Made by a program: the position numbers and the translations under genes. From assembly GCA_964637115.1 (NCBI GenBank), contig CAZWVL010000001.1, forward strand, positions 1 through 64,000: a stretch of DNA of 64,000 nt, given 5' to 3'. Below are positions 7,101 through 60,704 of the stretch, in pieces. The notes under the pieces were generated by a model. That model did no database searches. It was given only the letters and a program-made list of their open reading frames with translations, and was not told where the DNA came from. This DNA is from an uncultured Methanosarcinales archaeon (GTDB taxonomy: Archaea; Nanobdellota; Nanobdellia; Woesearchaeales; ARS49). Position 1 is the first letter of the stretch, and each line of letters begins with the position of its first letter.

Positions 7101-7237
7101 GATAAATCAATATCAACAGTAAAATTGTCCAAACGCTTTACATCAGTTACAGGGAAACCTTCCCTTTGCAGCCTTTCCAACAACGTCGCTGCATTTGCAT
7201 CCCTGTGCTTAGCTCTGCGTTCGATACGGTCTGGCAT
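4157..7237 (-). CDS. purL: FGAM synthase synthetase subunit with N-terminal PurS-like extension (about 1026 aa)
   Basis: QTWSEHCKH, DNAG, ETHNKPS, GRDGIHGATFSS, DLGAGGL, SESQE, QFDHEV, ISGKDS motifs; start moved to ATG 7237, just after the upstream stop at 7239. Confidence 0.95.
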   Translation of the reverse strand: MPDRIERRAKHRDANAATLLERLQREGFPVTDVKRLDNFTVDIDLSREKLESVAGMLINPIAEEAGYMGLNLFAPYESITPKSFDWAVEIGLLPGVKDREGETVEKEIKDKFKEQPKVYTSQTFFISGSLSADDVSKIADGLHNPAIKRATIKSRYEFLSSAGSIVPRVKLDAEQKADVVDLLNYDDFELQRIGSSGIFDYNRELNPEEYTRKQREYADDKLKLGDILEKDGKFFEKVRRGPLSMGLDYMQSVRDYFKERGRNPTDVELEAIAQTWSEHCKHTIFADPIDDIKTGLFDHYIKRATKKVIENKEKSGKKNFCVSVFKDNAGIIEFDENHYITDKAETHNKPSSIDPDGGSETGLGGVIRDSAGTGLGARPFQDAYLFCSGDTDDKRPLYRNQERTIKMLSPRKLLEGIVRGVNKYGNSMGIPTAQGGVCFDDRYRGNPLVFVRSVGIMPKVIAGRPSQDKGARPGDHIVLLGGRRGRDGIHGATFSSEALHSGSPAGAVQIGDPITEKNMFDALFEAQDRGLYTSITDLGAGGLSCAVGEMGRESNGCIVHLEKVPLKYSGLRFYETWISESQESMLLSVPPENWAKFKAHMDKRDVEATSIGTFTNTSYCTVTHSNETETQTIMDVSLKFLHDGLPKHQQTSKYTRPEYSEPELESLDDMTESLLSMLARKNIASYEFISRQFDHEVQGGSDLKPLQGRGMVNGDASVTRPLLESKKGVVLSQGINPLYSDLDTYDMAACAVDTAVRNAIAAGANPDHLALMDNFCWCSSKEEERLGQLKAAAQACYDFAVAYDTPFISGKDSMFNDFKGFDEDGKKINISIPPTVLISSLGVIDDSKKAVSLDAKLAGDVVYVLGETHDELGGSEYLSMVGQHGKGYVPKVDAVKNNELYRSLAKCIETELIESAQSVHRGGLAVALAKTAMGGKRGLSVSIDNLPGDWTQPHSALYSESMGRIVVTVTPEKQDRFEEMMGNNAYTPIGIITDDDKFVIGSDESELINAKVSSMLKSYKSTFEDY

Positions 7238-7238
7238 A

Positions 7239-8723
7239 TTATTTCGCTGTGATTTGGCTTGTATAGAGCTTTGCTGCTTCGTGCGGATTTTCGCTCTCGG
7301 AAATGCCGCGTCCGATAATTCCGTGGTATTTCTTGCCGGCAACCTTGGCCGCATCCCCGATTTTTCCACCTTGCGCAACAAAACCAGGAGAATATAACGT
7401 TGGTTCATCGATGCCTTCTGCCGCGATGACCTCATTTATCTTCTGAATTGCATCAAGCTTATTGCCAGGCACAACAAAGTGTGTGACACCTGCACGTGCG
7501 GCGATCCGATATATTTCAAGTGCACCTTCATCTGTGATGAATCCGCCTTCGCTCTTTGTGTAGGTTGGGTGTGTCATCCAGCCGCCAACTATCACATTTA
7601 ACCCTTTGTCAAGCGCGTGATACAACCAGCCCCGCTCTGATTCGGGCCCTGAGTGCGGGAATAAAATGAAGGTGTCAAATCCCGCAGCTTTCAACTCAGT
7701 GGTCATGTCACGAGGAGTGACATCCTGAATATCATTGCCTAATTTTTGACCGTCGTAAATCAATGGCTTGTTGGTATGCTTTCGTGCAGTTTCAATCCAG
7801 CGCTCCCATCCCTTTCTTCCAGAACGTGCGGGAATCTTGTACCCGCCGATACCATCCACGTCGGCAGTTGACTTAACTATTTCTTCAAACCGCTCAAATG
7901 ATACGTCGCACGCAACAATAACGCTTCGATCAGCGTCAATAATTCGCTGGTCAAGCGGTTTGTCAACGCCAAGTTCACTCTTTGCCTTCTGTGTGCCATA
8001 CACGCGCAGATATTTTGGAATGCGCTCTACTGCTTTTTGGTCAACGTCATCACGTGTCTTCAGCCACGCATGTATTTCAGATGTGTTTACGATAGAAACA
8101 ACCGATGTTCCTGTATCTTTTTCGTATTTATCAATTGCACTCACTCCATCATGGCCTATTTCTTGCCTGTCAACAGCGATTGCAAGAAGCGGCAATTCAA
8201 AATTGCCAAGCTCTTCAAGGTCCTTTCGCGCTTGATATTTTGCATCGCCGGCAGTAAAGACATCATCAAGCTGGGCAATCCTGTTGCCATCTTTTGGTGC
8301 ACGGCCCACAACATATGCCTTTATTTTTTCAGCTTTTGAAAGACTTGACGCTTCGCCGTGTTCCTTTGTAATTTTTCTTGTAAAAAACCAGGGAATATCC
8401 TTGCCTTGCTCGCACATACCTATTGCGGTGGCGATAGCAAGCCCAACGCCTTTCTCAGGAATGCCATACAGCAAATCCACATCAATTTTACTTCCAGCAC
8501 TTATTTCATTCGTATACCTGATGTGCTCTAAAATTGCAGACGCGTACGCTTTGCCTAATTTACTTGTAGTGGCACCATCGTTAAAATCTCCAATGTTAAT
8601 GAAATAAGGAGACATTCTCCCGCTCTTCAATGTCCAGTCGCTTCCTATTTTCAAAGCGCCAGTTTTCAATAGAAACTGAATAAATTCTGATTTGTATGCT
8701 TCAACGTTTACCATATTACTCAC
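7239..8723 (-). CDS. pyrE: Bifunctional orotate phosphoribosyltransferase / OMP decarboxylase fusion (PyrE-PyrF)
   Basis: N-half: LKSGRMSPYFIN and LDDVFTAG PRPP-binding motif. C-half: VIVACD, YDGQKLGNDI, VGGWMTH, SPGFVAQGG, IIGRGI (OMPDC TIM-barrel motifs). Confidence 0.9.
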   Translation of the reverse strand: MSNMVNVEAYKSEFIQFLLKTGALKIGSDWTLKSGRMSPYFINIGDFNDGATTSKLGKAYASAILEHIRYTNEISAGSKIDVDLLYGIPEKGVGLAIATAIGMCEQGKDIPWFFTRKITKEHGEASSLSKAEKIKAYVVGRAPKDGNRIAQLDDVFTAGDAKYQARKDLEELGNFELPLLAIAVDRQEIGHDGVSAIDKYEKDTGTSVVSIVNTSEIHAWLKTRDDVDQKAVERIPKYLRVYGTQKAKSELGVDKPLDQRIIDADRSVIVACDVSFERFEEIVKSTADVDGIGGYKIPARSGRKGWERWIETARKHTNKPLIYDGQKLGNDIQDVTPRDMTTELKAAGFDTFILFPHSGPESERGWLYHALDKGLNVIVGGWMTHPTYTKSEGGFITDEGALEIYRIAARAGVTHFVVPGNKLDAIQKINEVIAAEGIDEPTLYSPGFVAQGGKIGDAAKVAGKKYHGIIGRGISESENPHEAAKLYTSQITAK

Positions 8724-15101: not shown

Positions 15102-15162
15102 TAGTCACCTTTTTGTATCATTCAGAGCAGGCGGGTATATATGCTTATTGTAGTATAGTATA

Positions 15163-15246
15163 TGCGGACGGCAGGATTTGAACCTGCGAAGGCACTAAGC
15201 CACTGGCTCCTGAAGCCAGCCCGTTAGACCGCTCCGGCACGTCCGC
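15163..15246 (-). tRNA. tRNA-Leu(CAG)
   Basis: GCGGACG acceptor stem, CTGGC-TTCAGGA-GCCAG anticodon arm, long variable arm, GGTTCAAATCC T-arm, A73. Confidence 0.97.
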
Positions 15247-15281
15247 GCGAGAATAAGTCCTTTGATGACTGTATATAAACT

Positions 15282-15785
15282 TTATTCTCTGCTGAAAACA
15301 TCCTTTGGCTTCAGCAAGGTAATTGTTGCCCGTCTGTCAAAAAGCTCTATTCTTAGAATCTTTTGAGGATGTTCTGAGATTTTGCCCCGCAGCCAGGGCT
15401 TAATTGAATCAAGAATCTGCTCTATTTTTAATGAAGTCCTGTGAGGCAGGATTTCGATAACGTACTGGTCATCTGAAAGAATAAGATCTTTGATTTCTTC
15501 TTTAAAGGTGGTCTTGATGGCGTCTAAGGTGGCATCGCACCAATAATCAGCAGGAACCCACTTGATGGTAAATTTGATTGCATCAGGGTCGCTTGCTGCT
15601 ATATCGCGCAATTCTTCAATAACGTCGCGCGACTTGAGAACTGTGGAAACGCCGATGATTCCTGGAACTAATAATTCCTGCGTTGATTTCTGGTCGCCGA
15701 GCTTTGTCAGCAAATTATGAATTTCATTCTTGCCGGCAAGATAGCCGCCGGAAGAACTGTAATATACGATTAGATTAGGGTCCAT
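15282..15785 (-). CDS. THUMP-domain RNA-binding protein
   Basis: KWVPADYWC and HPQKILRIELF patterns and size match archaeal stand-alone THUMP proteins. Confidence 0.75.
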   Translation of the reverse strand: MDPNLIVYYSSSGGYLAGKNEIHNLLTKLGDQKSTQELLVPGIIGVSTVLKSRDVIEELRDIAASDPDAIKFTIKWVPADYWCDATLDAIKTTFKEEIKDLILSDDQYVIEILPHRTSLKIEQILDSIKPWLRGKISEHPQKILRIELFDRRATITLLKPKDVFSRE

Positions 15786-16858
15786 TGTTCTTCCTTCAAC
15801 GTGCCCTGTTTTAAAGTTTTCCTGTCAGCAAGGGTATGCACGCTAATGCCGACAAGACGAATTCTTCTGCCGTCTTTCAAGAATGGTTCGAGTTGTTCGG
15901 ATGCAGTTGTATGAAGAATTTTTACACTGTCAGTATATTCTTCCAAAGTTTTGCTCTTGGTGTGAGTGTCGAAATCTTCGTAACGGACTTTTAATGTGAT
16001 ATTTTTAAACAGGAAATCCTGCTCTTTCAGCTCCCGATAAATTTCGCGAATCATGTCGTCAATCATCGCCATGATGAAGCGCTTGTTTTTAGTATCACGC
16101 TCAAACGTGTACTGTCTGCCGATGCTCTTTGTAATCCATTCCTCGCTGACAGCTCTATTGTCAATACCGCGCGCCATGTTATGAAGATCTTCTCCAAAAG
16201 AACCCATTTCCTGCATAAGCATCTCTTTCGGCATCTTTACAACATCCTCAACTGTAATAATGCCGAGGGAATTAAGATGAGATTCTGTTTTTGGACCGAT
16301 GCCGTATAGGGCGCCGACTTTTTTAGGGTTAAGGAAATTTTCCACTTCTTCAGGACGGACAACTGTGAGGCCGTCTGGCTTGTTCTCGCCAGCGGCAATC
16401 TTTGCAAGTAACTTGTTTGGGCCAATTCCGACGCTGCAAGTCAAGCGCTCTTTTTCAAGAACTTCTTTCTTGATTAATTTGGCGAGCTCTATTGCTTCTT
16501 CGTAACTTTTGCAGCGATCGCTGACGTCAAAATAGGCTTCGTCTACAGATACCTGTTCAAACTTGTCAGCAAATTGGCGGAAAATGCGCATCACGTTACG
16601 AGATGCTTCGTAGTAGAGCGACCCGTTCACTGGCAGAAATACGGCAGTTGGACATTTGTGCCAAGCAGTAGAGATAGGCATAGCGCTCTTGATGCCATAT
16701 TTGCGGGCTTCGTAATTGCTGGTGCATACCACTCCCCTGCCTTTGCCTGCTTTAGGATTAGCGCCAACAACCACCGGCTTTCCTTTAAGTTCAGGATTCT
16801 CGCGCTCTTCAACCTGCGCAAAGAAATAATCCATGTCAACGAGCATTATGATGCGCAT
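15770..16858 (-). CDS. dinB: DNA polymerase IV (Y family)
   Basis: VDMDYFFAQVE, CTSNYEARKYGI, SVDEAYFD, SVGIGPNKLLAKIA, LYGIGPKT; start moved to ATG 16858. Confidence 0.96.
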   Translation of the reverse strand: MRIIMLVDMDYFFAQVEERENPELKGKPVVVGANPKAGKGRGVVCTSNYEARKYGIKSAMPISTAWHKCPTAVFLPVNGSLYYEASRNVMRIFRQFADKFEQVSVDEAYFDVSDRCKSYEEAIELAKLIKKEVLEKERLTCSVGIGPNKLLAKIAAGENKPDGLTVVRPEEVENFLNPKKVGALYGIGPKTESHLNSLGIITVEDVVKMPKEMLMQEMGSFGEDLHNMARGIDNRAVSEEWITKSIGRQYTFERDTKNKRFIMAMIDDMIREIYRELKEQDFLFKNITLKVRYEDFDTHTKSKTLEEYTDSVKILHTTASEQLEPFLKDGRRIRLVGISVHTLADRKTLKQGTLKEEQWTLI

Positions 16859-16912
16859 CACCGTACAGGGGTCCACATAATTTTTAAACCTTGCGCGCAC
16901 TTGTCCAGTGAG

Positions 16913-17656
16913 ATGAAGCTGCTTCCTATTGTCAAAGAATTGGAAAGTATGGATAATAAGGAAAGACTGGCATCCTTGAAAAGAATTCTTAAAAAGCACA
17001 AAGTGGCATTTATTTCGGAAAGATATGACGGCGGGGAGAACATAATCATCGGCAAGGGAAATGTTCTATTTGTTGCACATCATGATACGGTTAATGGCAG
17101 TCCCGGAGCAAATGACAATGCTTCTGCAATGGCAGTGCTTATTGGTCTGGCAAAAGCACGGAAAGCAGCCATTGTTATTTTTGATGAGGAAGAAATAGGT
17201 TATGTGGGTGCAGCAGCGTACATCAAGAAACATAACCTGCCAGAAGTTGTAGTTGATTTAGAAATGATGGGCAGAGGAGACATGATGGCAATCTGGCCAG
17301 TGGCTGAAGAACGGCCTTTGCTTGGAAAGATAAGAAAAGCTCTCAAAAAAGTCCTTCATTTTGAAGAAGCCAAAAAAGTGCCCATCTTCTGGGCGGATTT
17401 CACCGCATTTAGGGAGGCAGGACTGAAAGATGCTTGGAGCCTGACACTTGTGCCTTCATCTGAGAAAGAACTTATCAGAAATTTTGCAACAAACCCTTTT
17501 ATGACAACAATCTTGGCATTGATAGGCAGGATGCCTGACTTTTTCAAATGTTATCACTCAAAAAATGACAACAGCAGCAAATTGTCAGAAAAATCACTTC
17601 AATTATCACTGAAAGCGGTTATTTCTGTCTATGACGAATTAAAACGGAAGGCCTGA
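16913..17656 (+). CDS. M28 family peptidase
   Basis: AHHDTV, GANDNASAMAVL, FDEEEIG, DLEMMG, YHSKND zinc-binding motifs; start ATG 16913. Confidence 0.88.
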   Translation: MKLLPIVKELESMDNKERLASLKRILKKHKVAFISERYDGGENIIIGKGNVLFVAHHDTVNGSPGANDNASAMAVLIGLAKARKAAIVIFDEEEIGYVGAAAYIKKHNLPEVVVDLEMMGRGDMMAIWPVAEERPLLGKIRKALKKVLHFEEAKKVPIFWADFTAFREAGLKDAWSLTLVPSSEKELIRNFATNPFMTTILALIGRMPDFFKCYHSKNDNSSKLSEKSLQLSLKAVISVYDELKRKA

Positions 17657-18052
17657 ATGCACGCGCTCAGAGCCAGCCTGCCTATGCAGGTCCTTCAGAA
17701 TGCCGGCAAATGTCCTGTCTTTAAGTAAGAAAATGATTTTTCTGAAGCCCATGTTTACTTTCACGCCGCGCTGCTGCAATAAAGATTTTATTTTGATGCA
17801 CTTTTCATTGCTTTTCCTGTCGCCGTCGTATAACAGAATAACGGGCTTTTCCGTGTACGTGATTGCGTCAACGAAATCCTCAATAGGGTCCATAGGGTAA
17901 ACAACATTTTTGCATTTCAATGATTTCAGAATATCACGGCCTTTCTTGTGTTGGCAGACAATTAGATATTTCTTGCTGGCGTTCTTGATATGCTGCATCC
18001 AGTGAATCAGCTTGTCAATGTCACCGACCTTAGAATAATTCTTTCTGGGCAT
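17639..18052 (-). CDS. Small Toprim-domain protein (possibly degenerate)
   Basis: VILLYDGD DxD motif; the usual N-terminal acidic residue (IVEG) appears as IVCQH; GAGGTG RBS. Confidence 0.7.
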   Translation of the reverse strand: MPRKNYSKVGDIDKLIHWMQHIKNASKKYLIVCQHKKGRDILKSLKCKNVVYPMDPIEDFVDAITYTEKPVILLYDGDRKSNEKCIKIKSLLQQRGVKVNMGFRKIIFLLKDRTFAGILKDLHRQAGSERVHSGLPF

Positions 18053-18105
18053 GCACACCTCTTGAATGAAGAAGATGCAAGAGTCTATATAAAGATTACT
18101 TAATG

Positions 18106-18750
18106 CTAATTCTTTCTTACCCGCTCAGAATATTGCATTATTGCATGCTCGATTCCTCTTGAAAACATCATCTGCGGGTCTGCCAGCTTGCTTGGATGGC
18201 GTACTTCGTAAGTTGTTACCTTTTCATTCTTGAAGGCAGCCAATTTCGAAATGTCTAATGCATCCTCTGTGGGTTTCATAATTGTGTTGAGCGTGAAATA
18301 TATCAATCCTGGATATATTTTTTTATCTTGGACAACTATAACCTCGGCGATGGGTCCAGGGCCAAGGTGAGTGCAATTTATCAGGGTGTATTTCAACAAT
18401 GCATTCTGATATTCCGACTCTTGCTTTTTCAACCCCCCCATCCGTTCGCTTAGTTTGCTTGTTGTGTCATTATGCTTGCTTCTTGTTTCTATTGCAATTT
18501 GGGCAATTTTTCCAAACGCACAACGTTTACCTTTGCCTTCAATTATCATCAGGTCAGAAATGCTATATCCTGTATCACTTGGCGGCAAGTTTTTTACAAT
18601 GATTTGTTTCATTCCCTCAATCGACGCAGCTTGTCTTGAAATCTCAGCAGCAATTCTGCCGTAATGCTGTGAAAGCTCTTCCATTACCTGGGCTCTCGCT
18701 TCCTGGATTTTTAGCAGTTCAGCCTCCAACCTGCGTATTTCATTGTTCAT
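18106..18750 (-). CDS. Hypothetical protein with N-terminal coiled coil
   Basis: 214-aa ORF with upstream TATATAAA box; no motif recognised. Confidence 0.7.
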   Translation of the reverse strand: MNNEIRRLEAELLKIQEARAQVMEELSQHYGRIAAEISRQAASIEGMKQIIVKNLPPSDTGYSISDLMIIEGKGKRCAFGKIAQIAIETRSKHNDTTSKLSERMGGLKKQESEYQNALLKYTLINCTHLGPGPIAEVIVVQDKKIYPGLIYFTLNTIMKPTEDALDISKLAAFKNEKVTTYEVRHPSKLADPQMMFSRGIEHAIMQYSERVRKN

Positions 18751-18899
18751 TGAAACGTGAAATGATTGTTTCTTTATATACTTTTCAGTAGTGATTAAGT
18801 ATTGTTTTCTATATTGTAATTATATCGATTCCACGTCTGAAAACGAAACCATTATAAAGGGTAAAAGAAACCGTATATTCCAAGAGATAGAGAGATAGC

Positions 18900-19006
18900 G
18901 GGGCGGTGCCCCGATTGTTGAAACTGGTTCTATATGGGCTGGTTTCTAATGGTACTATCTTTCTTTTCTCTAATACGATAGGAACCAATCGAAACCAGGT
19001 TCGGAG
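18900..19006 (+). promoter_or_regulatory. Structured 5' leader of the DEAD-box helicase gene
   Basis: GGGGC-GGT-GCCCC hairpin (18900-18912) and long stem CTGGTTTC..CTATC / GATAG..GAAACCAG (18939-18998), ending just before the GGAG RBS. Confidence 0.5.
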
Positions 19007-19011
19007 ATAAA

Positions 19012-20253
19012 ATGAAATTTAGTGAATTAAATCTAAAGCCAGAGCTATTAACAGCTCTGCAAAAACTCAAATACGAAAACCCGACAGAAGTACAGGAAAA
19101 AGCAATCCCATTACTTTTACAAGGAAAAGATTTGGTAGTTAGAAGCAAGACCGGCAGCGGCAAAACATTCGCTTTCTTGCTGCCGATTTTGCAAAACCTA
19201 ACACCAGAAAGAAAATTACAAGCATTGATACTTTCACCAACACGTGAATTGGCACAACAGACAGACAAAGAAGCACACAAATTACTGCCAAACGCTAAAA
19301 CAGTGCTGTTATACGGAGGAGTGAGCATAGCCCCGCAAATGGACCTGCTTGACAGCGGTGCACAAATTGCAGTTGCAACGCCTGGAAGAGTACTTGACCA
19401 TCTGGCACGCAGAACCATAGACTTTTCAAACGTAAGATTTGTAGTCCTTGACGAAGCAGACAGAATGCTCGACATGGGATTCATCGACGATGTCGAGAAG
19501 ATTTTGCGCGCCACGCCAAAAAACAGGCAAACAATGCTGTTCTCAGCAACAATGCCTGGACAGGTAATCAATATTTCACAGCGCTACATGAAGGACCCGG
19601 AGACATTAATGCTCCAGCAGGACGAAATTACCGTCAAGAAAATCAAGCAGCGCGTATTAGGAATTGACAGAAAGCTAAAACTTGATCTTCTTATGAAAAT
19701 CCTGAAAGACAAAGATGTTAAGAAAACAATGGTTTTCTGCAACACAAAAGACTGGGCAGAAAGACTGGGAGATATCCTATGGAAAAAACGTTTTAATGCA
19801 ACCAGCATCCACTCAGGATTAAGCCAGAACAAGAGAAACAAAGTTATCTTTGATTTTAATTCGGGCAGGTACAATGTTCTTGTAGCAACAGACGTTGCAG
19901 CAAGAGGACTGCATATCGAAGGAGTCACGCATGTCGTGAATTATGACATTCCGCGCAATCCAAAGGACTATGTCCACAGAATTGGGCGCACCGGCAGAGC
20001 CGGCAAAGAAGGAGATGCCATCACGTTCGTGACTCAGATAGATGAGCACCTGCTCAGAGCGGTTGAATCAGAAATCCAGATGTTTTTGGTAGTGGAGCAC
20101 ATAACTCCAGAAGGCAAAATTTTGACTCCACCACGAGACAGGTCGCACTTGGAAACACCACAGCATACTCCATTGGCTCACGGGCTAAGATCAGAAGAAA
20201 TCAAGATACACACGCATTCTGACAGCTCAGGAGACGACTGGGGATTGGATTAA
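19012..20253 (+). CDS. DEAD-box RNA helicase
   Basis: Q motif, KTGSGKT, PTRELA, TPGR, DEAD, SAT, ARGL and HRIGRTGRAG motifs. Confidence 0.97.
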   Translation: MKFSELNLKPELLTALQKLKYENPTEVQEKAIPLLLQGKDLVVRSKTGSGKTFAFLLPILQNLTPERKLQALILSPTRELAQQTDKEAHKLLPNAKTVLLYGGVSIAPQMDLLDSGAQIAVATPGRVLDHLARRTIDFSNVRFVVLDEADRMLDMGFIDDVEKILRATPKNRQTMLFSATMPGQVINISQRYMKDPETLMLQQDEITVKKIKQRVLGIDRKLKLDLLMKILKDKDVKKTMVFCNTKDWAERLGDILWKKRFNATSIHSGLSQNKRNKVIFDFNSGRYNVLVATDVAARGLHIEGVTHVVNYDIPRNPKDYVHRIGRTGRAGKEGDAITFVTQIDEHLLRAVESEIQMFLVVEHITPEGKILTPPRDRSHLETPQHTPLAHGLRSEEIKIHTHSDSSGDDWGLD

Positions 20254-20822
20254 GGCTTGGCGTAAGTAGGCAGGTAGCTATTCAATTCCAAGCGTGCACG
20301 ATACATCCTGCTCATAACCGTGCCAATAGGAATCTGCTTGATTGCAGCAACCTGTTCGTATGTATGTCCGTCTGCCACTAACTTTAGAATTTCCTGTGAA
20401 CTGGTTTGAAGCTTTTGCATAGCCTGAATAAGCTGTGGTGAAACCTCATCTTTGACAAAATCAGGATCTTCTGGCTGCATATTCTCTTTGATGCGCAATT
20501 GCTTGGCAATCCTTCGGTTATGTTTAGTGGCAATCGTATCGTGACGTCCTCTTGAAATGTAGTCGTTTCTGATAGTTGTATACATCCACGCTTTCAAATT
20601 AGTTTGGTCCAAGGAAGGCATCTTTTCAGCAAGTTTCACATATGTATCCTGTACGACATCTTCTGCAAGCTGGGCATTGCCAGTGATCTTTTTTGCATAT
20701 CTTAGAAATGCATCATACTGCTTTACGATGTCATCAGGAATCTTAATAGGCGCTCTAGGAACGACTACTTGTTCCAAGCTAACGGATACAGGAGTTTCAA
20801 CAGATAAAATGTCTTCGCTCAT
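20250..20822 (-). CDS. ECF-type (sigma-70 group 4) sigma factor homolog
   Basis: Region 2: AEDVVQDTYVK..LKAWMYTTIRN. Region 4: GHTYEQVA..IPIGTVMSRMYRAR. Confidence 0.9.
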   Translation of the reverse strand: MSEDILSVETPVSVSLEQVVVPRAPIKIPDDIVKQYDAFLRYAKKITGNAQLAEDVVQDTYVKLAEKMPSLDQTNLKAWMYTTIRNDYISRGRHDTIATKHNRRIAKQLRIKENMQPEDPDFVKDEVSPQLIQAMQKLQTSSQEILKLVADGHTYEQVAAIKQIPIGTVMSRMYRARLELNSYLPTYAKP

Positions 20823-20863
20823 GAGCCTTGGAAGGCATATTAACTATATAAATTTAACTGTTT

Positions 20864-20883
20864 TTGTCACTTGATAGTGATAA
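20864..20883. promoter_or_regulatory. Palindromic motif TTGTCAC-TTGATA-GTGATAA, 11 bp upstream of the ECF gene TATA box (20845-20852)
   Basis: Seen directly; member of the motif family described in the findings. Confidence 0.7.
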
Positions 20884-20889
20884 TAAATC

Positions 20890-22275
20890 TTAGAGCAGCT
20901 TGTTCTTGATGCCACTCAGCTCATTCTTGCGGCCGCGGCTATCGCCACATGTCGAAGAAATAGTGTATTTCCTGCTTTCATAACCCTGCACATATACCTG
21001 CACGTGCCCGCCTTCTGCGTGCTCCACAGCAAGGCCGAGCTGGCCGAGCTGGTTAGCGATTTCTCCCGTAATCTTTCTTGGCGCGGACTTAAAAATGCTG
21101 TCAAGTGTTTCTACAATGTGGTTGCGCTGGCCTGAAGGCTTGTTCAGCTCAAGGAATGCCTTGAGCAGGTCTTCGCGTCGCGAATCCTTGTGCGTGTAGT
21201 TCTGCTGGCCTTGAAGGAGATAAATGAGCATGTCTCGCAATTCGCCAGCATACAATTCTGCCATGGGAGGGAAACGTAGCACGTTTTCATAACCGGGCCT
21301 GCGTAAGCTGTTTTGTGCAATCAGGCTCTCGAGCGCGTCAATTTTGGCATAACATTCTTTAAGTTCTTTTTCACGGCGCGTGACTTCATCAATCGCAAGT
21401 TGAATCGCTTCGTCCTGGGTTGTGGCTTTGAGTAGTTCCAGTTGCTTACCTGTTTTCATACTTTTGATTCCATCAAAGCGGAGTTCGGCAGGGAACGTAC
21501 CCAGCAATGCCTGCTCGCGAATGGCTTCGTAGAGAGTGGTTTCCATATCCTTGGTTTCAGTGGGCAGGATGATTTTGCGAATGCCCGTCGGCCAGTAAAT
21601 TCCAACTGCCCCGCTATGCGCGTTGCGTCCGCTCGTGCGATTGCGAAGCTTGAATGAAAAGTCGCGAGTTGGCTCAACGAGAACATGTGCCATTCCGCCG
21701 AGCGCGTGCGCAACGCGGTCCGGATGTGCGATGGGAAATCCTTGGTTATCCCTGCTCAGATAGACGACTGGCAGTTTGTTTTTGGATTGGTTGTATATGA
21801 TTTCTGCGACGAACTCAAGATCATCTTCTATGAGCATAAATGGCTCTTTTTTTGGGTACAACATGGTGCCGTCCTGTCCACCTTTGAGTTCGTCCAAAAT
21901 GTCATTGACGATGCGGGGTTTATTTGCTCCTGCCGGCGCACCGCCAATCTTCTTGAGCTCATAATCATGAGTTACGGATACGAGAAATTCTTTTTCACCG
22001 CGCCTTGAGGCGACATCTGTAGTGCGGACTGTGCGGTCATCGGTTTCAATCAGGCGGGTTGCGTAGAGCTCGCGTTTACCTTCATTAACGCGCACTGTTT
22101 CAACACTGACGTGATTTTTCTGGTAGGAGAAGCCATCCTGCGCAATTTTGTCGAGGTCTGCCCGCGGAACATTTCTGTGAGGGCTGCTGGAAATCCAGGT
22201 CTGGATAGTGCTTGCAAGGTGTTCAATACTTTTGTTGCGATTAACTGGAAATACAGCGCAATATGTCTTTGCCAT
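20890..22275 (-). CDS. Hypothetical protein (about 461 aa), bacterial-like, with possible C-terminal HicA-like domain
   Basis: Long ORF, visibly GC-richer than its neighbours; C-terminal GGHVQV..TISSTCGDSRG; start placed at ATG 22275 from TATA spacing. Confidence 0.75.
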   Translation of the reverse strand: MAKTYCAVFPVNRNKSIEHLASTIQTWISSSPHRNVPRADLDKIAQDGFSYQKNHVSVETVRVNEGKRELYATRLIETDDRTVRTTDVASRRGEKEFLVSVTHDYELKKIGGAPAGANKPRIVNDILDELKGGQDGTMLYPKKEPFMLIEDDLEFVAEIIYNQSKNKLPVVYLSRDNQGFPIAHPDRVAHALGGMAHVLVEPTRDFSFKLRNRTSGRNAHSGAVGIYWPTGIRKIILPTETKDMETTLYEAIREQALLGTFPAELRFDGIKSMKTGKQLELLKATTQDEAIQLAIDEVTRREKELKECYAKIDALESLIAQNSLRRPGYENVLRFPPMAELYAGELRDMLIYLLQGQQNYTHKDSRREDLLKAFLELNKPSGQRNHIVETLDSIFKSAPRKITGEIANQLGQLGLAVEHAEGGHVQVYVQGYESRKYTISSTCGDSRGRKNELSGIKNKLL

Positions 22276-22317
22276 TGTGGTATGCATTGAAAAGGCATTT
22301 ATAAATCTTTCTTTCTT

Positions 22318-22337
22318 GTGTCACTAGATAGTAGTTA
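22318..22337. promoter_or_regulatory. Palindromic motif copy GTGTCAC-TAGATA-GTAGTTA, 12 bp upstream of TATA 22298-22305
   Basis: Seen directly. Confidence 0.55.
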
Positions 22338-22409
22338 TGATGGCTTCCGCAAGCTTTAAAAGCAACTCCCTTGTTTCCTATTCTATTGTAGTAGTGGGAG
22401 GGGATTTGA

Positions 22410-22880
22410 GTGAAGAACGAATTAACAACGGCAATTTGTATTGCTCTTTGTGCGGTATTAGCAGTAGCAGTGAGCGCAGTAATGTAAGTGGTAGTTCTAA
22501 CAAGCTATTTGAGGCCTGTAGTACAAGACCTGGGTGCAAGAATAACTGAAACGGCAAACGGCTTTGTAGCAGAAGGATCTAATTACAGATTAGAAATAAA
22601 TGAGAAACAGACGTCAGTTACCTACAGGGATTCAAGCGTTGAAATCGACATGTCGAAAATGAGCAAAATAATGATGAATTATGAAATCAAAAATGGTTCA
22701 AGGCGCCAGCAAATTGAAGTCCTCAAAGCATCCAAAACAGAAATCGCAAAACAAGTCTTAAACGGAATAAGAGGAGACATACGAACACTGGCAATGACTG
22801 AAGAACTTGAAGATGCGGTTATCTTAATTGAAGAACAAATAAAATACCGGGGCAGATCAGAGCCGGCTTACACCAAATAA
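22410..22880 (+). pseudogene. Membrane-anchored hypothetical protein interrupted by an in-frame TAA at 22485-22487
   Basis: GGAGGGG RBS, then GTG 22410 and a hydrophobic stretch that continues in frame across the TAA into the 22488-22880 ORF. Confidence 0.5.
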
Positions 22881-22891
22881 CTATTTTCTGC

Positions 22892-23078
22892 AGAGGACTT
22901 TGAATGACTACATTTTTGTCAAACATCGGAAATCCTTACGCGGATTTCCGAGTGTGATCAAGAACCACTGCGATAAGTTGACATTTTGGTGCTATTCACG
23001 TCACCTTCTTTAGCAGGTGGTTCTTGACAGTCCTCTTAGATAATTTTGACTATTTTTGATAAATATTCAAAATTATCT
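22892..23078. repeat. Double-hairpin REP-like repeat, copy 2, interrupted by a 106-bp insertion
   Basis: AGAGGACTTTGAA..GTCAA[insert 22923-23028]AGTCCTCT-T-AGATAATTTTGAC..TTCAAAATTATCT. Confidence 0.85.
22923..23028. mobile_element. Putative non-autonomous palindromic mini-element
   Basis: Splits an arm that is intact in the other two repeat copies; contains TCGGAAATCC/GGATTTCCGA and TCAAGAACCAC/GTGGTTCTTGA inverted repeats; no target duplication. Confidence 0.5.
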
Positions 23079-23420
23079 GCAATCAACTTTAGCCAAAGCA
23101 TCGCCAACCTTGTCAAGATTTTCATGCAAAACTTTCTTTGCTTCATCCGACAAGTCATATTCCTGCGCAAAAGTGGCAAGCCAGGCTTTTGCATCCCTTA
23201 AAGTATTGGCAGCAGGTTTCATAGAATTCCCATCAACCTTGCCTGATGCGTCACAAGTAACGCCCCTGAGCTTGTCTGAAAATTCATCAACTTTTTGATG
23301 CAAGACTTTCATCGCCTCAGCAGCAACATCGTATTCTGTTTTGAAAACTGAAAGCCAGTTCTTGAAATCGCGCACTGAATTCTCAACATCGCGAACTGAT
23401 TTATCCATTATTTTTGCCAT
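23073..23420 (-). CDS. Helical hypothetical protein made of two tandem repeats of about 45 aa
   Basis: RDFKNWLSVFKTEYDVAAEAMKVLHQKVD versus RDAKAWLATFAQEYDLSDEAKKVLHENLD; GAGGTG RBS. Confidence 0.8.
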   Translation of the reverse strand: MAKIMDKSVRDVENSVRDFKNWLSVFKTEYDVAAEAMKVLHQKVDEFSDKLRGVTCDASGKVDGNSMKPAANTLRDAKAWLATFAQEYDLSDEAKKVLHENLDKVGDALAKVDCR

Positions 23421-23487
23421 ATTGATGCACCTCGTTTAATATTATAATAGCTCTGAAAATGCCACGGTATAAAAAATTTTAGGTACT

Positions 23488-23691
23488 CTACTGGTTTCTA
23501 TTGTTAATACCAAACCAGTCATGCAGTCCGCACCAGCCAAAGAAGCTCTCCACCAATGCAATCCAGCCAATAATTGCCACGAGCAGATTTGCCCACGGAG
23601 CAGCAAACTGGGGTGCAAAAGGTCCAAGCCACCAAATGGCGAGTACAAACCTGAATATTCTATCAAGTTTTCCTAAGTTCTGTTTTACCAT
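23488..23691 (-). CDS. DUF2892 (YgaP-like) small membrane protein
   Basis: NLGKLDRIFR start, two hydrophobic segments, GWCGL...FGIN. Confidence 0.8.
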   Translation of the reverse strand: MVKQNLGKLDRIFRFVLAIWWLGPFAPQFAAPWANLLVAIIGWIALVESFFGWCGLHDWFGINNRNQ

Positions 23692-23779
23692 AGAGGAAAG
23701 AGCTGCGTTGCTCAATATTAATTTTGGGTACGACAATACGTACGCAACCCATTAATAATACGGGAGCTTGCAAAGATAT

Positions 23780-24064
23780 ATGAAAATGGCAGCAGTAATT
23801 CTGTTTGCAGTCGCGATTTTTGCAGTAGTTGCGCTGGTAAATATGAACAAAGCAAGCCCAAGCGCATATGTTGTCCAGCCGTCCACGGACAGAGTTCTCG
23901 GCTATTGTCCAGTCAGTCAGGCTAATTTAGAATGCTACATAGGCGGAAGAGAAGGGATATGCAATTGCAGGACATTAGACGACTACCTGCCATTATACTG
24001 GCAGAGAGACAACTGCGCCTGTGTTGTACCTTCATACATTCAAGGAGTATGGCCGCAACCTTAA
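23780..24064 (+). CDS. Small secreted or anchored Cys-rich protein
   Basis: N-terminal hydrophobic segment, six Cys. Confidence 0.6.
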   Translation: MKMAAVILFAVAIFAVVALVNMNKASPSAYVVQPSTDRVLGYCPVSQANLECYIGGREGICNCRTLDDYLPLYWQRDNCACVVPSYIQGVWPQP

Positions 24065-24067
24065 TTT

Positions 24068-24481
24068 TCACTTGAATGATTTATTTTTAACTGGCAGTCC
24101 AGCGACGTCCCACGCTTTCATGCCGCCGTTCAAATGGTATAAGTTCGTGTAACCAAGGTCCTGCAACTGCTTGACAGCAGATTCACTCATCCTGCCAGAC
24201 CTGCAGTACACAAGAATTGGCGCGTTTTTGTCTTTCGGCAGCTGGTCGACGTGTGCAGGAATGTTTTCCCAGTCTTCTATAATTGCGTCTGTCTTCTCAA
24301 GCTCGCCTTCGTAAGGTGTATGCACGTTAAGAACAAACAAACCCATTTCTTCTTTTTTGTCCAGAAGCTCCTTTACCTTTTCAGGAGGCAGATTTTGGAA
24401 CGTGTCAGAATGTTTTTCTTTGATTTGAGGTGTTTGAGAACACGCTACCAGCAAAATGAACAATGCGGAAATTATTTTCAT
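24068..24481 (-). CDS. Rhodanese-domain lipoprotein
   Basis: Lipobox-like LVAC; active-site loop YCRSGRMS; HLNGGMKAW. Confidence 0.9.
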   Translation of the reverse strand: MKIISALFILLVACSQTPQIKEKHSDTFQNLPPEKVKELLDKKEEMGLFVLNVHTPYEGELEKTDAIIEDWENIPAHVDQLPKDKNAPILVYCRSGRMSESAVKQLQDLGYTNLYHLNGGMKAWDVAGLPVKNKSFK

Positions 24482-25050
24482 GCCGCAACAGCTGTCTTGG
24501 GCTTCGCAGCGGTTTTCTTTGTCTGCTTGGTTGTAAATTCTTCAACAAGAATCGCGCACTTGCACGGCAATTTGTAAGAAGCACGCTTCATAGCACGCCT
24601 TGCAAGAGGAATATGCTCTTTGTAAGTCTTGATTGTGAAAATCGGCTGGCCCGCATAAATCCTTGCAGCAATGCCAATCGGCTTGCCGTAGTTGTGCGCC
24701 ATACCAGTAGACAAACGGTCTGCACCTGCACCAGAAGCCAATGGGTTCTCCCTAATAATGTGGTGCGGGAAACATCTCATCTGGAAAAAGTAACCGGCCT
24801 TTCCCAAAGCGCCTTCCAGAACTCTGTTGGAAGTCTGACGCGCGCTTTCCAAAGCTGCATCACGAATCTGCAAATCAGACTTTGCGACCAAATGAAGCTT
24901 CACAGTAAAGTTCTCCTGAGTGCCGCCAGTATATCTTGAAATCCTGTTAGCAGGACGAGCAGCAACATAACAGAGCTTCTTGTACTTTGACCATCGAGTG
25001 TAGGCTCTCTTGAGGTCTCTGTAGCAACAAAACTTTCGTAATCGGGCCAT
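24478..25050 (-). CDS. rpl10e: 50S ribosomal protein L10e (uL16)
   Basis: LESARQTSNR, FPHHIIRENPLASGAGADRLSTGM, GKPIG, ASYKLP. Confidence 0.97.
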   Translation of the reverse strand: MARLRKFCCYRDLKRAYTRWSKYKKLCYVAARPANRISRYTGGTQENFTVKLHLVAKSDLQIRDAALESARQTSNRVLEGALGKAGYFFQMRCFPHHIIRENPLASGAGADRLSTGMAHNYGKPIGIAARIYAGQPIFTIKTYKEHIPLARRAMKRASYKLPCKCAILVEEFTTKQTKKTAAKPKTAVAA

Positions 25051-28515: not shown

Positions 28516-28609
28516 CCCTGTGTTTCCTCTTCAAATATGGCTGGCAGCACCTCATTTAAATAATTTCTGCACAGGAACGTTTTTAAACTCTATGTTATAC
28601 TTTCCGATT

Positions 28610-29428
28610 ATGAAGAAATGGGTAATAGGGGCAATTGTAATTCTTGCAATACTCATAGGCACAGGTTATTTCCTATTAGCGCCGCCATCAGTCGCAGCTG
28701 CCATATTATATGTAGAAAGCGGCGATGTACAGGTAAACACGGGTAAAGGATGGCATCCAGCAACAGATGAAATGGAACTAAAACAAGGAAACCAGATCAA
28801 AACAGGAGAAGGCGAAGCAACAGTCATACTGCAGGAAGGAGAAGTTGTGCACCTGCAGCCAAACACAGAAATCAAACTTGACTCCATCAGTGGAGAAAGC
28901 ATAAAATTATCACAGACAGTTGGAGAAACGTGGAATAAAGTCACGAAGATATCCGGCGTTTCAGAGTTTACAATCGAAACACCAAGCACAGTAGCTACAG
29001 TCAGAGGAACTGAGTTCATGCTCAACGAGGAACAACTGGACGTTGAAGACGGAGAAGTAGATTATGAACTAAAAGCCGATAAAAAGAAAATCAAAGTCAG
29101 AGCGCACAAGAAAGCAATGAAAAATCTCATGCAAGAAGAAGACATGAGCGAAGAAGATCTTTCACGCTTCAAACAATTCTCTGAAAAATATGCGAATGCA
29201 CTGAAACGCATCAGAGCGCGAGAAATCAAAAAGAATGGCGTGTTCATCAAAATGGCAGAGAAAAAAGGCATTACAAGAGAACAAATGGAACAAGATCTGA
29301 AAGACATGGATGAAGGCATAAAAAACGAAGATGAATTCTATGAAAAAGTTCCTGACGCCATGAAGCCAAGAGCAAAACGCATATACTTGCTAACTAAGGA
29401 AATCAAACGCGCACGCGCAAAGCAATGA
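28610..29428 (+). CDS. FecR-domain protein with N-terminal membrane anchor
   Basis: VESGDVQV..GW, LKQGNQIKTG, FTIETPSTVATVRGTEF, VEDGEV. Confidence 0.88.
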   Translation: MKKWVIGAIVILAILIGTGYFLLAPPSVAAAILYVESGDVQVNTGKGWHPATDEMELKQGNQIKTGEGEATVILQEGEVVHLQPNTEIKLDSISGESIKLSQTVGETWNKVTKISGVSEFTIETPSTVATVRGTEFMLNEEQLDVEDGEVDYELKADKKKIKVRAHKKAMKNLMQEEDMSEEDLSRFKQFSEKYANALKRIRAREIKKNGVFIKMAEKKGITREQMEQDLKDMDEGIKNEDEFYEKVPDAMKPRAKRIYLLTKEIKRARAKQ

Positions 29429-31083
29429 AGCTAACTGTTGTTGTATCAATTGTTACAGGACTTGTTCTTGTCCTGTTAGCATATTTGGGAGTATTCTACA
29501 CGTGGAATCTTGGCGTAACTGATGTTTTGTATGGCGGCAAACCGGCGTTGCAGAATATCAAGATAATAGCAATTGACGACAAAAGCCTGCAGGAAATAGG
29601 CAGATGGCCGTGGGACAGAACAGTATGGGTAGACCTTCTGAACTCTACCAGTTCAGCCACTGTCGTTGCATTTGATGTCGCGTTCTTCGAACCAACAAAA
29701 GATGATGCGGCAGTTGGAGAAGCAATGCGAAAAGCAAGCAACGTCATAATAGCACAGGAATACGACTTCAGCAGAAAAGTGGATTTGATTCCAGCAGAAG
29801 GATTTGCAAATGTGCAGACGGCAATGATAAACATTTACACAGACCAAGAAGGAGTGAGCAGAAGTGTACCAGTAATACTTGAAGGAAAACAATCTTTATC
29901 GCTTGCTGTTGCACAAAAATACATCGGCAGAGAACTAACCATTCCGCAACAAAAAATGATTGTAAACTTTGCAGGCGGACCAGGAAGCTATCAGACTTAT
30001 TCAGCATCAGACGTGATAAACGGAAGAGTGCCTGCGAATGAATTTGAAAATGCAATAATATTCATCGGCGCAACAGCTCCAGACCTGCACGACGATTATC
30101 CAGTGCCAACATCACACAAAAAACGCATGCCGGGAGTGGAGATACACGCGCACGCCGTGCAAACAATACTTGCAAAACAATATCTACGCCACCAGAGTTT
30201 CGGTTCACTTGTCATAGTAATACTGGCAATATCAATAATCAGCGGACTGTTATATGGAACTCTGAAAATTCGCTACGGCACTCCAATCTTAATCCTTCTG
30301 CTCATCGGATATTTTGTCGTCAGCATATTCATTTTCAAACGAGGACTTATTCTGAATTTAATATATCCTACATTGACTATTGTAGCAACCTCGCTGACTT
30401 CAATCAGCTACATAGCCGCTTCTGAGACAAAACACAAAAAGTACATTCTTGGAATATTCGGCAAGTACGTCTCAAAAGACGTTGTTGACCATTTGCTGAA
30501 AAGTGAAAAATCAATAGAATTGGGCGGAACAGAAAGAGAAGTAACATCAATGTTTGCAGACATCAGAGGCTTTACAGCAATGTCAGAAAAGATGACGCCG
30601 CACCAAGTCATCACATTCCTAAACCACTATTTTGGCGATATGACTGATTTAATATTTGCACACGAAGGAACACTTGACAAATATGTGGGAGACGCTCTTT
30701 TTGCGCTTTGGGGCTCACCGCTTCCTGACAAAGACCACGCGTATAAAGCAGTTAAGTGCGCTCTTGCAATCCAGGAAAAGCTCAAAACACAGCATCGAAA
30801 AGACATTCCGCCGATAAACTTAGGAATAGGAATCTGTTCAGGCCCGGCAGTTGTAGGCAATATGGGCTCGCCTCAAAGACAAGAGTTTACGGCCATAGGT
30901 GACACGATAAACACATCATCACGGCTCAGCGGAACAGCAAGCGGTGGGCAGGTAATGATAACAGACTCAACTTATCAGATGATTAAGGACAAGGTTATTG
31001 CCAAAAAACTAGAGCCGCTAAAAGTAAAAGGCAAAGAAAAAATGCTGACAGTGTATGAAGTTGTTGGACTTAAAGCTACGTAA
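29425..31083 (+). CDS. CHASE2-domain class III adenylate/guanylate cyclase
   Basis: IIAIDDKSLQEIGRWPWDR and MPGVEIHAHAV (CHASE2); three TM helices; MFADIRGFT, TLDKYVGD, AIGDTINTSSRL (cyclase; K at substrate site suggests ATP). Confidence 0.94.
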   Translation: MKLTVVVSIVTGLVLVLLAYLGVFYTWNLGVTDVLYGGKPALQNIKIIAIDDKSLQEIGRWPWDRTVWVDLLNSTSSATVVAFDVAFFEPTKDDAAVGEAMRKASNVIIAQEYDFSRKVDLIPAEGFANVQTAMINIYTDQEGVSRSVPVILEGKQSLSLAVAQKYIGRELTIPQQKMIVNFAGGPGSYQTYSASDVINGRVPANEFENAIIFIGATAPDLHDDYPVPTSHKKRMPGVEIHAHAVQTILAKQYLRHQSFGSLVIVILAISIISGLLYGTLKIRYGTPILILLLIGYFVVSIFIFKRGLILNLIYPTLTIVATSLTSISYIAASETKHKKYILGIFGKYVSKDVVDHLLKSEKSIELGGTEREVTSMFADIRGFTAMSEKMTPHQVITFLNHYFGDMTDLIFAHEGTLDKYVGDALFALWGSPLPDKDHAYKAVKCALAIQEKLKTQHRKDIPPINLGIGICSGPAVVGNMGSPQRQEFTAIGDTINTSSRLSGTASGGQVMITDSTYQMIKDKVIAKKLEPLKVKGKEKMLTVYEVVGLKAT

Positions 31084-31198: not shown

Positions 31199-32626
31199 TC
31201 AAAGCCCAGCAAGAAAATCCTTAACAACCATGGTTGCTCTAACGTCATCCTCGTTGTAATCAAGAATTCTCTGCAAAAGCTCCCTTTCCTTAGTTTCCAA
31301 AAACTGCAAGTAAAGAACAATACTTTCCTGTGCGTCAGCCATACCCCTATACCTGAAACCAAGAAATTTACTAATTTCCTTCAACGACATAGTCATTGTA
31401 GGAAAAATTACGTTCTTCCTCACCAAAGAAAGAACGTCAATCATGTTGTTGAGAATATTTGAAACGTTCACCTTGTATTTTTGGCCCAATGAAGCAATAT
31501 GCGTTCTTTCATACGGGCCATAATGATAGATGGGCGCGTCAGGAAACTTCTTCACATAAGCGAGAAAATCGTGCAGCATCCTTCCTTCATCAGTCAAAGC
31601 TTCTGCAACAAAAGGGCGGAAATGTGCGCCATTATTGTCCTTCACCAACAACCCAATGAGATAATCAGTCTTTACCATGCCTTCTTCAGTTTCTAATTCA
31701 TCCGTTCCCTCAAAATCCAAGAACAATTCAACACCTGTTTTTGGCAGGTTGGGCTTGGAGAGAATTATTGGTTTTTTATCAATCCATGCCTGCGCGTACA
31801 ATTTTATTTTTTTAAGAGTTGGCTCTGGAATATCAAGTTCAACCGGCTGCGTAGCCAGCTGCTTAACAGTTAAAATTCCGGCAAAATTAAGTTTTTTCTT
31901 CAATGCAGGGCCAACATTCGGAACTATGGAGATATCGTTAGTTTCGACAGCCCGCTTGTTGCAATAGTTTTCCCACGGCCACTTGCAGGATTTTGCTGTT
32001 GGCGAAATTTGCTTGCCATTCCAGACTTCTTTTATGCCTGCAAGAATTTGAAGCAGTTCATCCTTGTACTCATCATATTCGTACTCAAACTCTTCCTGTT
32101 CCCTGTTAATAAGGTAGAATTTTGCGGGTGTGTAAAGTTGCACTTTGCCAATCAGGTAAGTATAGAACGCTGCCTGCATAATGTATTCGTGCTTGATATG
32201 TTTCGCACTCTTGATTTCCTTGACAATATAATAGTGATTGCCAAATGTACTGGAATGATCGTTTCTTCTTTCGATGACATCGGTAATACCGTAGATGTCT
32301 TCAGGCAAGTAAAATAACGGAGCGCCAGTCAAAACCTTTGAGCCTTTCTGGCAGGCATCTAAAACCTGCTTGAAACCAGTTTCAAAAGAAAGCATGGGAA
32401 TTTCAACAGCATCCGGAAATAAATCAGCACGCACGTTTTTCTCGTGCTGGATGCCTCTTTCAAACAGCAAATGCATGTACTTGTTTTCAGGCTCCCTTTC
32501 TTCAGGTGGAGCAAACGCATCGCACCAAACAATAAAAGGGCTGATGCAATATTTCAGTACAGTGCTTCCAGTAATGGTGAACTTAGAACGATGCTTTCCG
32601 GCAAGACAGCTCTCGAATACGTCCAT
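31199..32626 (-). CDS. TM0106-family RecB-like nuclease with C-terminal RNase H-like domain
   Basis: PD-(D/E)xK-like GITDVIE..VKEIKSAK..QAAFY; HhH-like IVPNVG; FLDFEG and YNEDDVRAT. Confidence 0.9.
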   Translation of the reverse strand: MDVFESCLAGKHRSKFTITGSTVLKYCISPFIVWCDAFAPPEEREPENKYMHLLFERGIQHEKNVRADLFPDAVEIPMLSFETGFKQVLDACQKGSKVLTGAPLFYLPEDIYGITDVIERRNDHSSTFGNHYYIVKEIKSAKHIKHEYIMQAAFYTYLIGKVQLYTPAKFYLINREQEEFEYEYDEYKDELLQILAGIKEVWNGKQISPTAKSCKWPWENYCNKRAVETNDISIVPNVGPALKKKLNFAGILTVKQLATQPVELDIPEPTLKKIKLYAQAWIDKKPIILSKPNLPKTGVELFLDFEGTDELETEEGMVKTDYLIGLLVKDNNGAHFRPFVAEALTDEGRMLHDFLAYVKKFPDAPIYHYGPYERTHIASLGQKYKVNVSNILNNMIDVLSLVRKNVIFPTMTMSLKEISKFLGFRYRGMADAQESIVLYLQFLETKERELLQRILDYNEDDVRATMVVKDFLAGL

Positions 32627-41660: not shown

Positions 41661-41682
41661 ATTGTCACTATAAAGTGACAAT
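41661..41682. promoter_or_regulatory. Perfect palindrome ATTGTCAC-TATAAA-GTGACAAT between the TATA box (41650-41657) and the start codon
   Basis: Seen directly; repressor-type position. Confidence 0.75.
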
Positions 41683-60684: not shown

Positions 60685-60704
60685 TTGTCACTTGATAGTG
60701 CTAA
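60685..60704. promoter_or_regulatory. Palindromic motif copy TTGTCAC-TTGATA-GTGCTAA, 12 bp upstream of TATA 60717-60724
   Basis: First 16 nt identical to the copy at 20864. Confidence 0.7.

Follow-up and report, generated by a model that had tools for sequence, protein, structure and literature searches.

The window analysed here, positions 1-64,000 of contig C1 (CAZWVL010000001.1; 191 kb) of an uncultured Woesearchaeota archaeon, encodes a structurally complete sigma factor of the extracytoplasmic function (ECF) type, comprising both a sigma-2 and a sigma-4 domain. Sigma factors define transcription initiation in bacteria, while the archaeal polymerase uses the TATA-binding protein (TBP) and transcription factor B (TFB), not sigma. 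The data support the sigma gene being a long-resident, native gene of this genome, and it is accessory and dispensable, relatives having exchanged, shortened or lost it in a conserved slot next to a helicase gene. Regarding its role, we tentatively favour, with somewhat less than even confidence, an accessory regulator of transcription that recognises specific DNA sequences within the archaeal cell and is encoded by a resident accessory gene. All coordinates are window positions unless marked C1, and those of the main features are collected in Table 1.

The 190-residue open reading frame had been singled out in an earlier note made from the sequence alone, and the three motifs quoted there, AEDVVQDTY, KAWMYTTIRN and IPIGTVMSR, are each found in its translation. 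The sigma-2 domain covers residues ~30-110 and the sigma-4 domain residues ~130-185. Pfam analysis reports Sigma70_r2 (PF04542; 45 bits for a cut-off of 24, residues 37-91 out of 190 in total) and Sigma70_r4_2 (PF08281; 37.4 bits for a cut-off of 25.7, residues 130-180), and does not return any match for region 3 (PF04539) or region 1.2 (PF00140). The size of the protein and its regions, devoid of 1.1, 1.2 and 3, are those of an ECF sigma of about 160-220 residues. Similarly, the ECF superfamily model TIGR02937 of NCBIfam scores 73.4 bits (cut-off 42.9), and no NCBIfam model of an ECF subfamily reaches its cut-off (PRK12511, 86.6 vs 185; TIGR02985, 81.6 vs 126.4). The AlphaFold2 model, built on 79 homologues, exhibits two helical domains joined by a linker with a mean pLDDT of 89, both domains being above 94, and an acidic N-terminal stretch of low confidence. 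A Foldseek search of the PDB with this model reports ECF sigmas as the top ~25 matches (probability 1.00), including SigH, SigE and SigL of M. tuberculosis as well as SigW, AlgU and sigmaE. Superposition of single domains on solved ECF sigmas yields a root-mean-square deviation of 1.6-2.1 Å for region 4 and 1.5 Å for region 2, and phmmer matches PDB chains of bacterial ECF sigmas with E-values from 2e-13 to 6e-6. Since Pfam, NCBIfam, the structural model and the PDB matches all agree, the identity of the gene product as a complete ECF-type sigma is confirmed.

The window sigma shares the sigma-2/sigma-4 fold of the bacterial ECF (group 4) sigmas, such as SigH (5zx2/6kon), SigW (5wuq), AlgU (6in7) and sigmaE (1or7/6jbq), and keeps their region 2.2 and region 4.2 motifs, but is only 20-35% identical to any member. 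Unlike them, it comes from an archaeal genome in which no bacterial polymerase is encoded, its gene is preceded by an archaeal TATA box where bacterial ECF genes have an autoregulated promoter, and it has no anti-sigma partner. On this last point the earlier note was right, as Pfam analysis matches no neighbour to a known anti-sigma family. A FecR-domain protein encoded 8 kb away (28520-29428) was considered as an anti-sigma and ruled out because it lacks a cytoplasmic N-terminal domain, and the 461-residue protein encoded upstream of the sigma gene is not recognisable as one by Pfam or by fold. The window sigma also matches the profile of the phage sigma factors of PHROG 1740 (E-value 7e-20), its best PHROG match. 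Like phage sigmas, it might use the polymerase of a genome other than the one that encodes it; unlike them, it has no surrounding virus genes and occupies a chromosomal, syntenic position.

Two features of the assembly could point to an artefact, namely a mis-binned or chimeric bacterial fragment: the genome (1.27 Mb, 27 contigs, 98% complete) has an estimated contamination of 4.25%, and C1 is its largest contig, with a last part of ~40 kb (C1:148000-191339) that is a strong tetranucleotide outlier. The remainder (C1:1-148k) is indistinguishable from the other contigs in tetranucleotide make-up, and the sigma gene is host-typical in GC content (z -0.3), in codon use (71st percentile) and in GC content at third codon positions. 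The locus is present in six independent assemblies from two studies (99.5-100% identity), and other assemblies supply 100%-identical contigs that span 15138-22427 and 18917-24718. The coverage check proposed in the earlier note gives an even depth over 12-30 kb in four runs. The organism is found in freshwater sediments, where its genome reaches a depth of 12-43x. Moreover, same-genus genomes that were binned independently carry the flanking genes at 65-90% identity, the ribosomal protein uL16 gene, whose product shares 82% identity with its counterpart on the syntenic contig L058, lies 3.7 kb from the sigma gene, and the promoter of the sigma gene is archaeal. The window also contains a gene for a double winged-helix regulator of the HVO_0163 type and an S-layer-like gene. 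The genome encodes TBP and a single RpoB of archaeal type, a search for a bacterial RNA polymerase in it found none, and exactly one Rpo1N is present in each of the 46 sampled genomes of the order (46/46). The lineage assignment draws on cluster mates of the genome and on homologues of the 461-residue protein, which bear the names Candidatus Woesearchaeota or Nanoarchaeia. An artefactual origin thus has a negligible chance, and within the reach of these data mis-binning and chimerism can be excluded. Support for the proposal of the earlier note, a domesticated gene and not a fresh bacterial fragment, comes from the host-typical composition, the archaeal promoter and the synteny in other genera, as well as from the location of the other placed members of the sigma clade on archaeal contigs and from the absence of a bacterial polymerase from the bin.

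About one third of the genes possess a TATA-like hexamer starting at -31 to -27 from the ATG, in equal measure on C1 and on the remaining contigs, and the Shine-Dalgarno signal is weak genome-wide; together, these features argue for leaderless archaeal transcription. The TATA box TTTATATA, announced in the earlier note 23-30 nucleotides upstream of the sigma ATG, is indeed found there and falls on the genome-wide modal position, so the sigma gene is assigned a predicted leaderless archaeal promoter. The same leaderless TATA arrangement is seen upstream of DPANN ECF-like genes in other genomes. By contrast with the bacterial factors, an ECF-type promoter (-35 AAC, -10 CGT) indicative of autoregulation is not visible upstream of the sigma gene.

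Upstream of this TATA box lies the palindromic, operator-like motif TCACTATCAAGTGAC. The palindrome described in the earlier note is therefore present, but its spacing from the TATA box is 14 nucleotides (13 with a flanking C) and not 11. Three exact copies of the 13-mer ACTATC[AT]AGTGAC occur in the genome versus ~0.08 expected, all of them inside the window and each 13-16 nucleotides upstream of a TATA box. They precede the sigma gene, the 461-residue gene and a gene at 60764-62266 encoding a 500-residue membrane or secreted protein without a Pfam family. The operator and the adjoining spacer are kept in the promoter of the L058 sigma gene, which encodes a protein 38% identical to the window sigma. 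Copies with one mismatch are located at 41664-41679 and C1:152588-152600. A wide regulon is rejected: copies with two mismatches number ~30, fewer than the 66 expected from shuffling, and TATA boxes show no enrichment of AGTGAC upstream. A loose end of one run (X1) at 20884, considered as a strain without the 461-residue gene, is instead a repeat-induced join, since its sequence matches the flank of the third operator copy at 60.7 kb. Through this candidate operator in three promoters, the sigma gene is, as far as promoter sequences can tell, embedded in host regulation.

The occurrence of sigma-70 genes in Woesearchaeota is not new, being in print since 2021: Castelle et al. (Front Microbiol 12:660052, PMC8204110) found these genes particularly prevalent in Woesearchaeota, ruled out the mis-binning of DPANN sigma-70 genes and found no anti-sigma factors. 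Likened by description, their DPANN sigma-70 genes (fam00359) and the window sigma both belong to Woesearchaeota, are not mis-binned, lack anti-sigma factors and coexist with TBP- and TFB-type transcription. That paper holds no locus-level description; the helicase slot, the three architectures, the fast divergence and the shared operator go beyond it. In the GTDB family of the window genome, PF04542 is found in 39 of the 77 genomes and 19 of the 29 genera, a tally that takes in five unpublished genomes (G010, G023, G070, G086 and G088). The present genome possesses three sigma genes, all on C1. The second (C1:77605-78177, minus strand; L001:1204-1776) encodes 190 residues with regions 2 and 4, and its orthologues adjoin genes for a 216-residue membrane protein and an 88-residue winged-helix protein in four same-genus genomes. 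The third (C1:~111470-113629, plus strand; L003:106-2265) encodes at least 719 residues with C-terminal regions 2, 3 and 4, and its relatives, of about 720-780 residues, occur in other genera.

An exhaustive search returned 16,343 sigma matches, among which only four proteins are close to the window sigma (P0040-P0043, 37-40% identity), and a single-protein scan of metagenome contigs returned four remote, partial matches only. P0040 is encoded on L058, which is syntenic with the window from 16.9 to 27.1 kb and carries, among other genes, those of the M28 peptidase, the helicase and uL16. In a quick maximum-likelihood tree, in which the clades cited here are moderately supported (Shimodaira-Hasegawa-like approximate likelihood ratio test, SH-aLRT, 86-91), the window sigma groups with P0040-P0043 (SH-aLRT 91), and this group is sister to the ECF-like genes of the genomes G011, G022 and G046 and to P0124. 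The latter is encoded on an archaeal contig together with a diphthamide synthase, an archaeal helicase and an ATP-dependent ligase. One neighbouring clade contains an ECF sigma of Sphingobacterium. The window sigma thus belongs to an ECF-like lineage that diversifies inside DPANN archaea.

The sigma gene converges on a DEAD-box helicase gene that is well conserved in the genus (79-89% identity in 11 of the 14 genomes). Across three genera, the slot at the 3' end of this helicase gene holds sigma genes of three architectures. Within the genus, the content between the helicase gene and a 115-residue gene differs in almost every genome (Table 1), and the truncated gene of G009, a 100% complete genome, is the only Sigma70_r2 match there. 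In one run, a loose end at 20254 indicates that an allele of the G011 type co-occurs with that of the window. In other genera, an orthologous helicase (69% identity) is followed by a convergent ECF-like gene in G083, and a 53%-identical helicase adjoins a ~720-residue sigma in G075 and G076; a sigma gene also stands at or just past the helicase 3' end in L058. Since the arrangement recurs in other genera while its contents vary, the slot looks old and its occupant seems to turn over quickly.

All five strain-level variants in the sigma coding sequence are synonymous third-position changes; between species, an identity of 26-40% would leave the synonymous divergence (dS) saturated. Among the clade members, whose identity is only 23-39%, D55 (AEDxVQ, region 2.2) and R172 (GT.MSR..RAR recognition helix, region 4.2) are invariant, Q58 is changed in one of eight members, and the other residues of the recognition helix are kept in most. 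The earlier note had paired relaxed selection with absence from relatives as a warning sign. Half of this is seen, the gene being accessory, very fast to evolve, and cut short or absent in several genomes of the genus. The strain variants and the two invariant residues speak for selection.

These observations bear on the possibility that the sigma gene is cargo of a variable, conflict-related island (defence, mobile or virus-derived), either as a regulator of the island only or as a decaying gene, which we consider unlikely while granting it some weight. The changing content of the slot, with a PIN toxin-like gene in G004, the fast divergence of the sigma, the truncated remnant in G009 and the match with a phage sigma family would all fit such an origin. 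So would the 461-residue neighbour, which matches the PADLOC candidate defence protein HEC-07 (E-value 4e-10) and is atypical in GC content (z 2.5) and codon use (7th percentile). This neighbour, which has its own promoter, does not match any Pfam family, and its AlphaFold2 model (pLDDT 85) returns no PDB fold match at E <0.001, the weak ones being thioredoxin-like and START-like. Its homologues (34-76% identity) are found in Woesearchaeota and Nanoarchaeia. One of them, P0192 (76% identity), directly precedes the sigma P0042, and the gene pair is thus kept in one relative, whereas more distant homologues do not adjoin a sigma. Against an island origin stand the host-typical composition of the sigma gene, the purely synonymous changes between strains, the helicase-sigma adjacency kept across three genera, and the lack of any integrase, repeat or virus gene seen in the island.

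According to the reading we prefer, in which the sigma is a resident accessory regulator, an archaeal TATA promoter, equipped with an operator that also precedes two other genes, would drive the synthesis of a leaderless mRNA from the gene. The protein would then regulate a small, strain-variable set of genes inside the archaeal cell, binding DNA via its conserved sigma-4 helix-turn-helix and possibly also via sigma-2. A more far-reaching alternative is a role as genuine initiation factor of the archaeal polymerase, with sigma-2 on the Rpo1N clamp coiled-coil and sigma-4 on the Rpo2 flap, giving a sigma-directed promoter class beside TBP/TFB. The invariance of the core-binding D55 and the near invariance of Q58 in region 2.2 would be expected of such a factor, as would the upkeep of three sigma genes, one with regions 2, 3 and 4, in this genome and of primary-like sigmas with regions 1.2 to 4 in relatives; the archaeal polymerase is the only one available and has a clamp coiled-coil homologous to the beta-prime one. 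The beta-prime residues R275, E295 and A302 of E. coli are reportedly needed for sigma-70 binding, according to work by Arthur, Anthony and Burgess in 2000. In a BLASTP alignment, the Woesearchaeal clamp coiled-coil has I, L and H at the corresponding positions, and this coiled-coil is invariant across the order whether sigma genes are present or not. The sigma genes are also dispensable, and the window gene shows no bacterial-type promoter motif of its own. A complex prediction of sigma-2 (residues 26-116) with the Rpo1N clamp (416 residues) both entered as alignments, scored 0.00 and counts neither way. From the BLASTP comparison, the sigma looks unlikely to dock on the archaeal polymerase through the interface used in bacteria, and a role as initiation factor is distinctly improbable. 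A GTGAC-N17/18-TATA geometry is found at the promoters of the sigma gene and its neighbour. The broader proposal that the three sigmas dock on the archaeal polymerase and provide a second route of promoter selection, maybe with this geometry, or, in a variant, act as an effector on the polymerase of a bacterial partner, would be just as improbable.

Considered by itself, delivery of the sigma to a bacterial partner or prey, whose polymerase it would redirect as phage sigmas do, seems even more doubtful, and we give it very little credence. It is the second of the roles suggested in the earlier note, the other being a DNA-binding or promoter-melting factor. It would account for the retained sequence features of a polymerase-binding and DNA-binding bacterial sigma in a genome without a bacterial polymerase. 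However, the protein lacks a signal peptide and any other sign of export, there is no secretion or surface gene to which its gene is linked, and no host is known for any Woesearchaeon (PMC11606122).

Several points also weigh against the resident regulator that we prefer. The palindromic operator suggests a dimeric archaeal regulator rather than a monomeric sigma-4, and the sigma therefore need not bind it. The missing ECF-type promoter and the substituted clamp residues mentioned above belong here too. Five of the 14 same-genus genomes (88-100% complete) have no Sigma70_r2 match, which makes the gene dispensable. The 111-residue remnant of G009 and the sigma-free slots of G013 and G003 belong here as well. 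The sigma is 26% identical in G011 vs 87% for the helicase, 38% in L058 vs 65-85% for the flanking genes, and P0042 is 40% identical vs 76% for the homologue of the 461-residue neighbour. Such an extreme divergence fits conflict, relaxed constraint or swapping as well as regulation.

Table 1. Coordinates of the sigma gene, its promoter elements and neighbours, and occupants of the helicase slot in the window genome and in same-genus genomes
Feature	Position	Strand	Remarks
ECF-type sigma-70 family gene, 190 residues	20250..20822	-	open reading frame, Pfam, NCBIfam, AlphaFold2, Foldseek, phmmer vs PDB
TATA box TTTATATA of the sigma gene	20845..20852	-	-30..-23 from ATG
Palindromic operator-like motif TCACTATCAAGTGAC	20866..20880		upstream of the sigma TATA box
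461-residue gene	20890..22275	-	open reading frame to 22287, probable start M5; called 461 residues in other assemblies
TATA box TTTATAAA of the 461-residue gene	22298..22305	-	-30..-23 from ATG at 22275
Second exact operator copy ACTATCTAGTGAC	22320..22332	-	14 nucleotides upstream of TTTATAAA
Third exact operator copy	60687..60699		plus strand: 16 nucleotides upstream of the TATA box of the 500-residue gene
DEAD-box helicase gene	19012..20253	+	Pfam; 3' end overlaps the sigma stop codon
Ribosomal protein uL16 (L10e) gene	24478..25050	-	Pfam PF00252, 90.6 bits
Slot, window genome			convergent overlapping ECF sigma, 190 residues
Slot, G011			convergent overlapping ECF sigma, 174 residues, 26% identical
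Slot, G009	L048:2740-3075	-	111-residue apparent remnant with sigma-2 only, AEDAVQGAF; same convergent position
Slot, G012, G002, G004, G010			primary-like sigmas, 400-450 residues, regions 1.2, 2, 3, 4
Slot, G004, additional gene			PIN toxin-like
Slot, G013, G003			no sigma

Several other features of the window deserve mention. The tRNA-Leu CAG gene (15163-15246) coincides with many contig loose ends and with a depth spike at 15161-15208 in all four runs; both are most simply explained by foreign contigs sharing the tRNA, but could mark an integration site. Three minus-strand genes are bacterial- or eukaryote-flavoured: those of a large, single-chain FGAM synthase (1092 residues, 4157-7435), of an RNase_H_2 superfamily protein (475 residues, 31199-32626) and of a Ser/Thr protein kinase (785 residues, 42846-45203). 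Lastly, on the plus strand (28520-31083), the gene of the FecR-domain protein, which is membrane-anchored, overlaps the start of a CHASE2-adenylate/guanylate cyclase gene, the two forming a bacterial-style sensor pair in an archaeal genome.

What is new here is the helicase slot, the fast divergence of the sigma accompanied by synonymous-only variation between strains, and the 13-nucleotide operator common to three promoters. The locus does not add a new category, because the question it poses was already raised in print in 2021. Intact, selected sigma genes beside an archaeal polymerase only nevertheless pose a real mechanistic question, since archaea are not supposed to use sigmas and yet keep them. 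The present locus is a well-defined test case for it: a short, foldable protein with a mapped, predicted archaeal promoter, a candidate operator in three promoters, and a slot where sigma types replace each other. Binding and in vitro transcription experiments are easy to design on such features.

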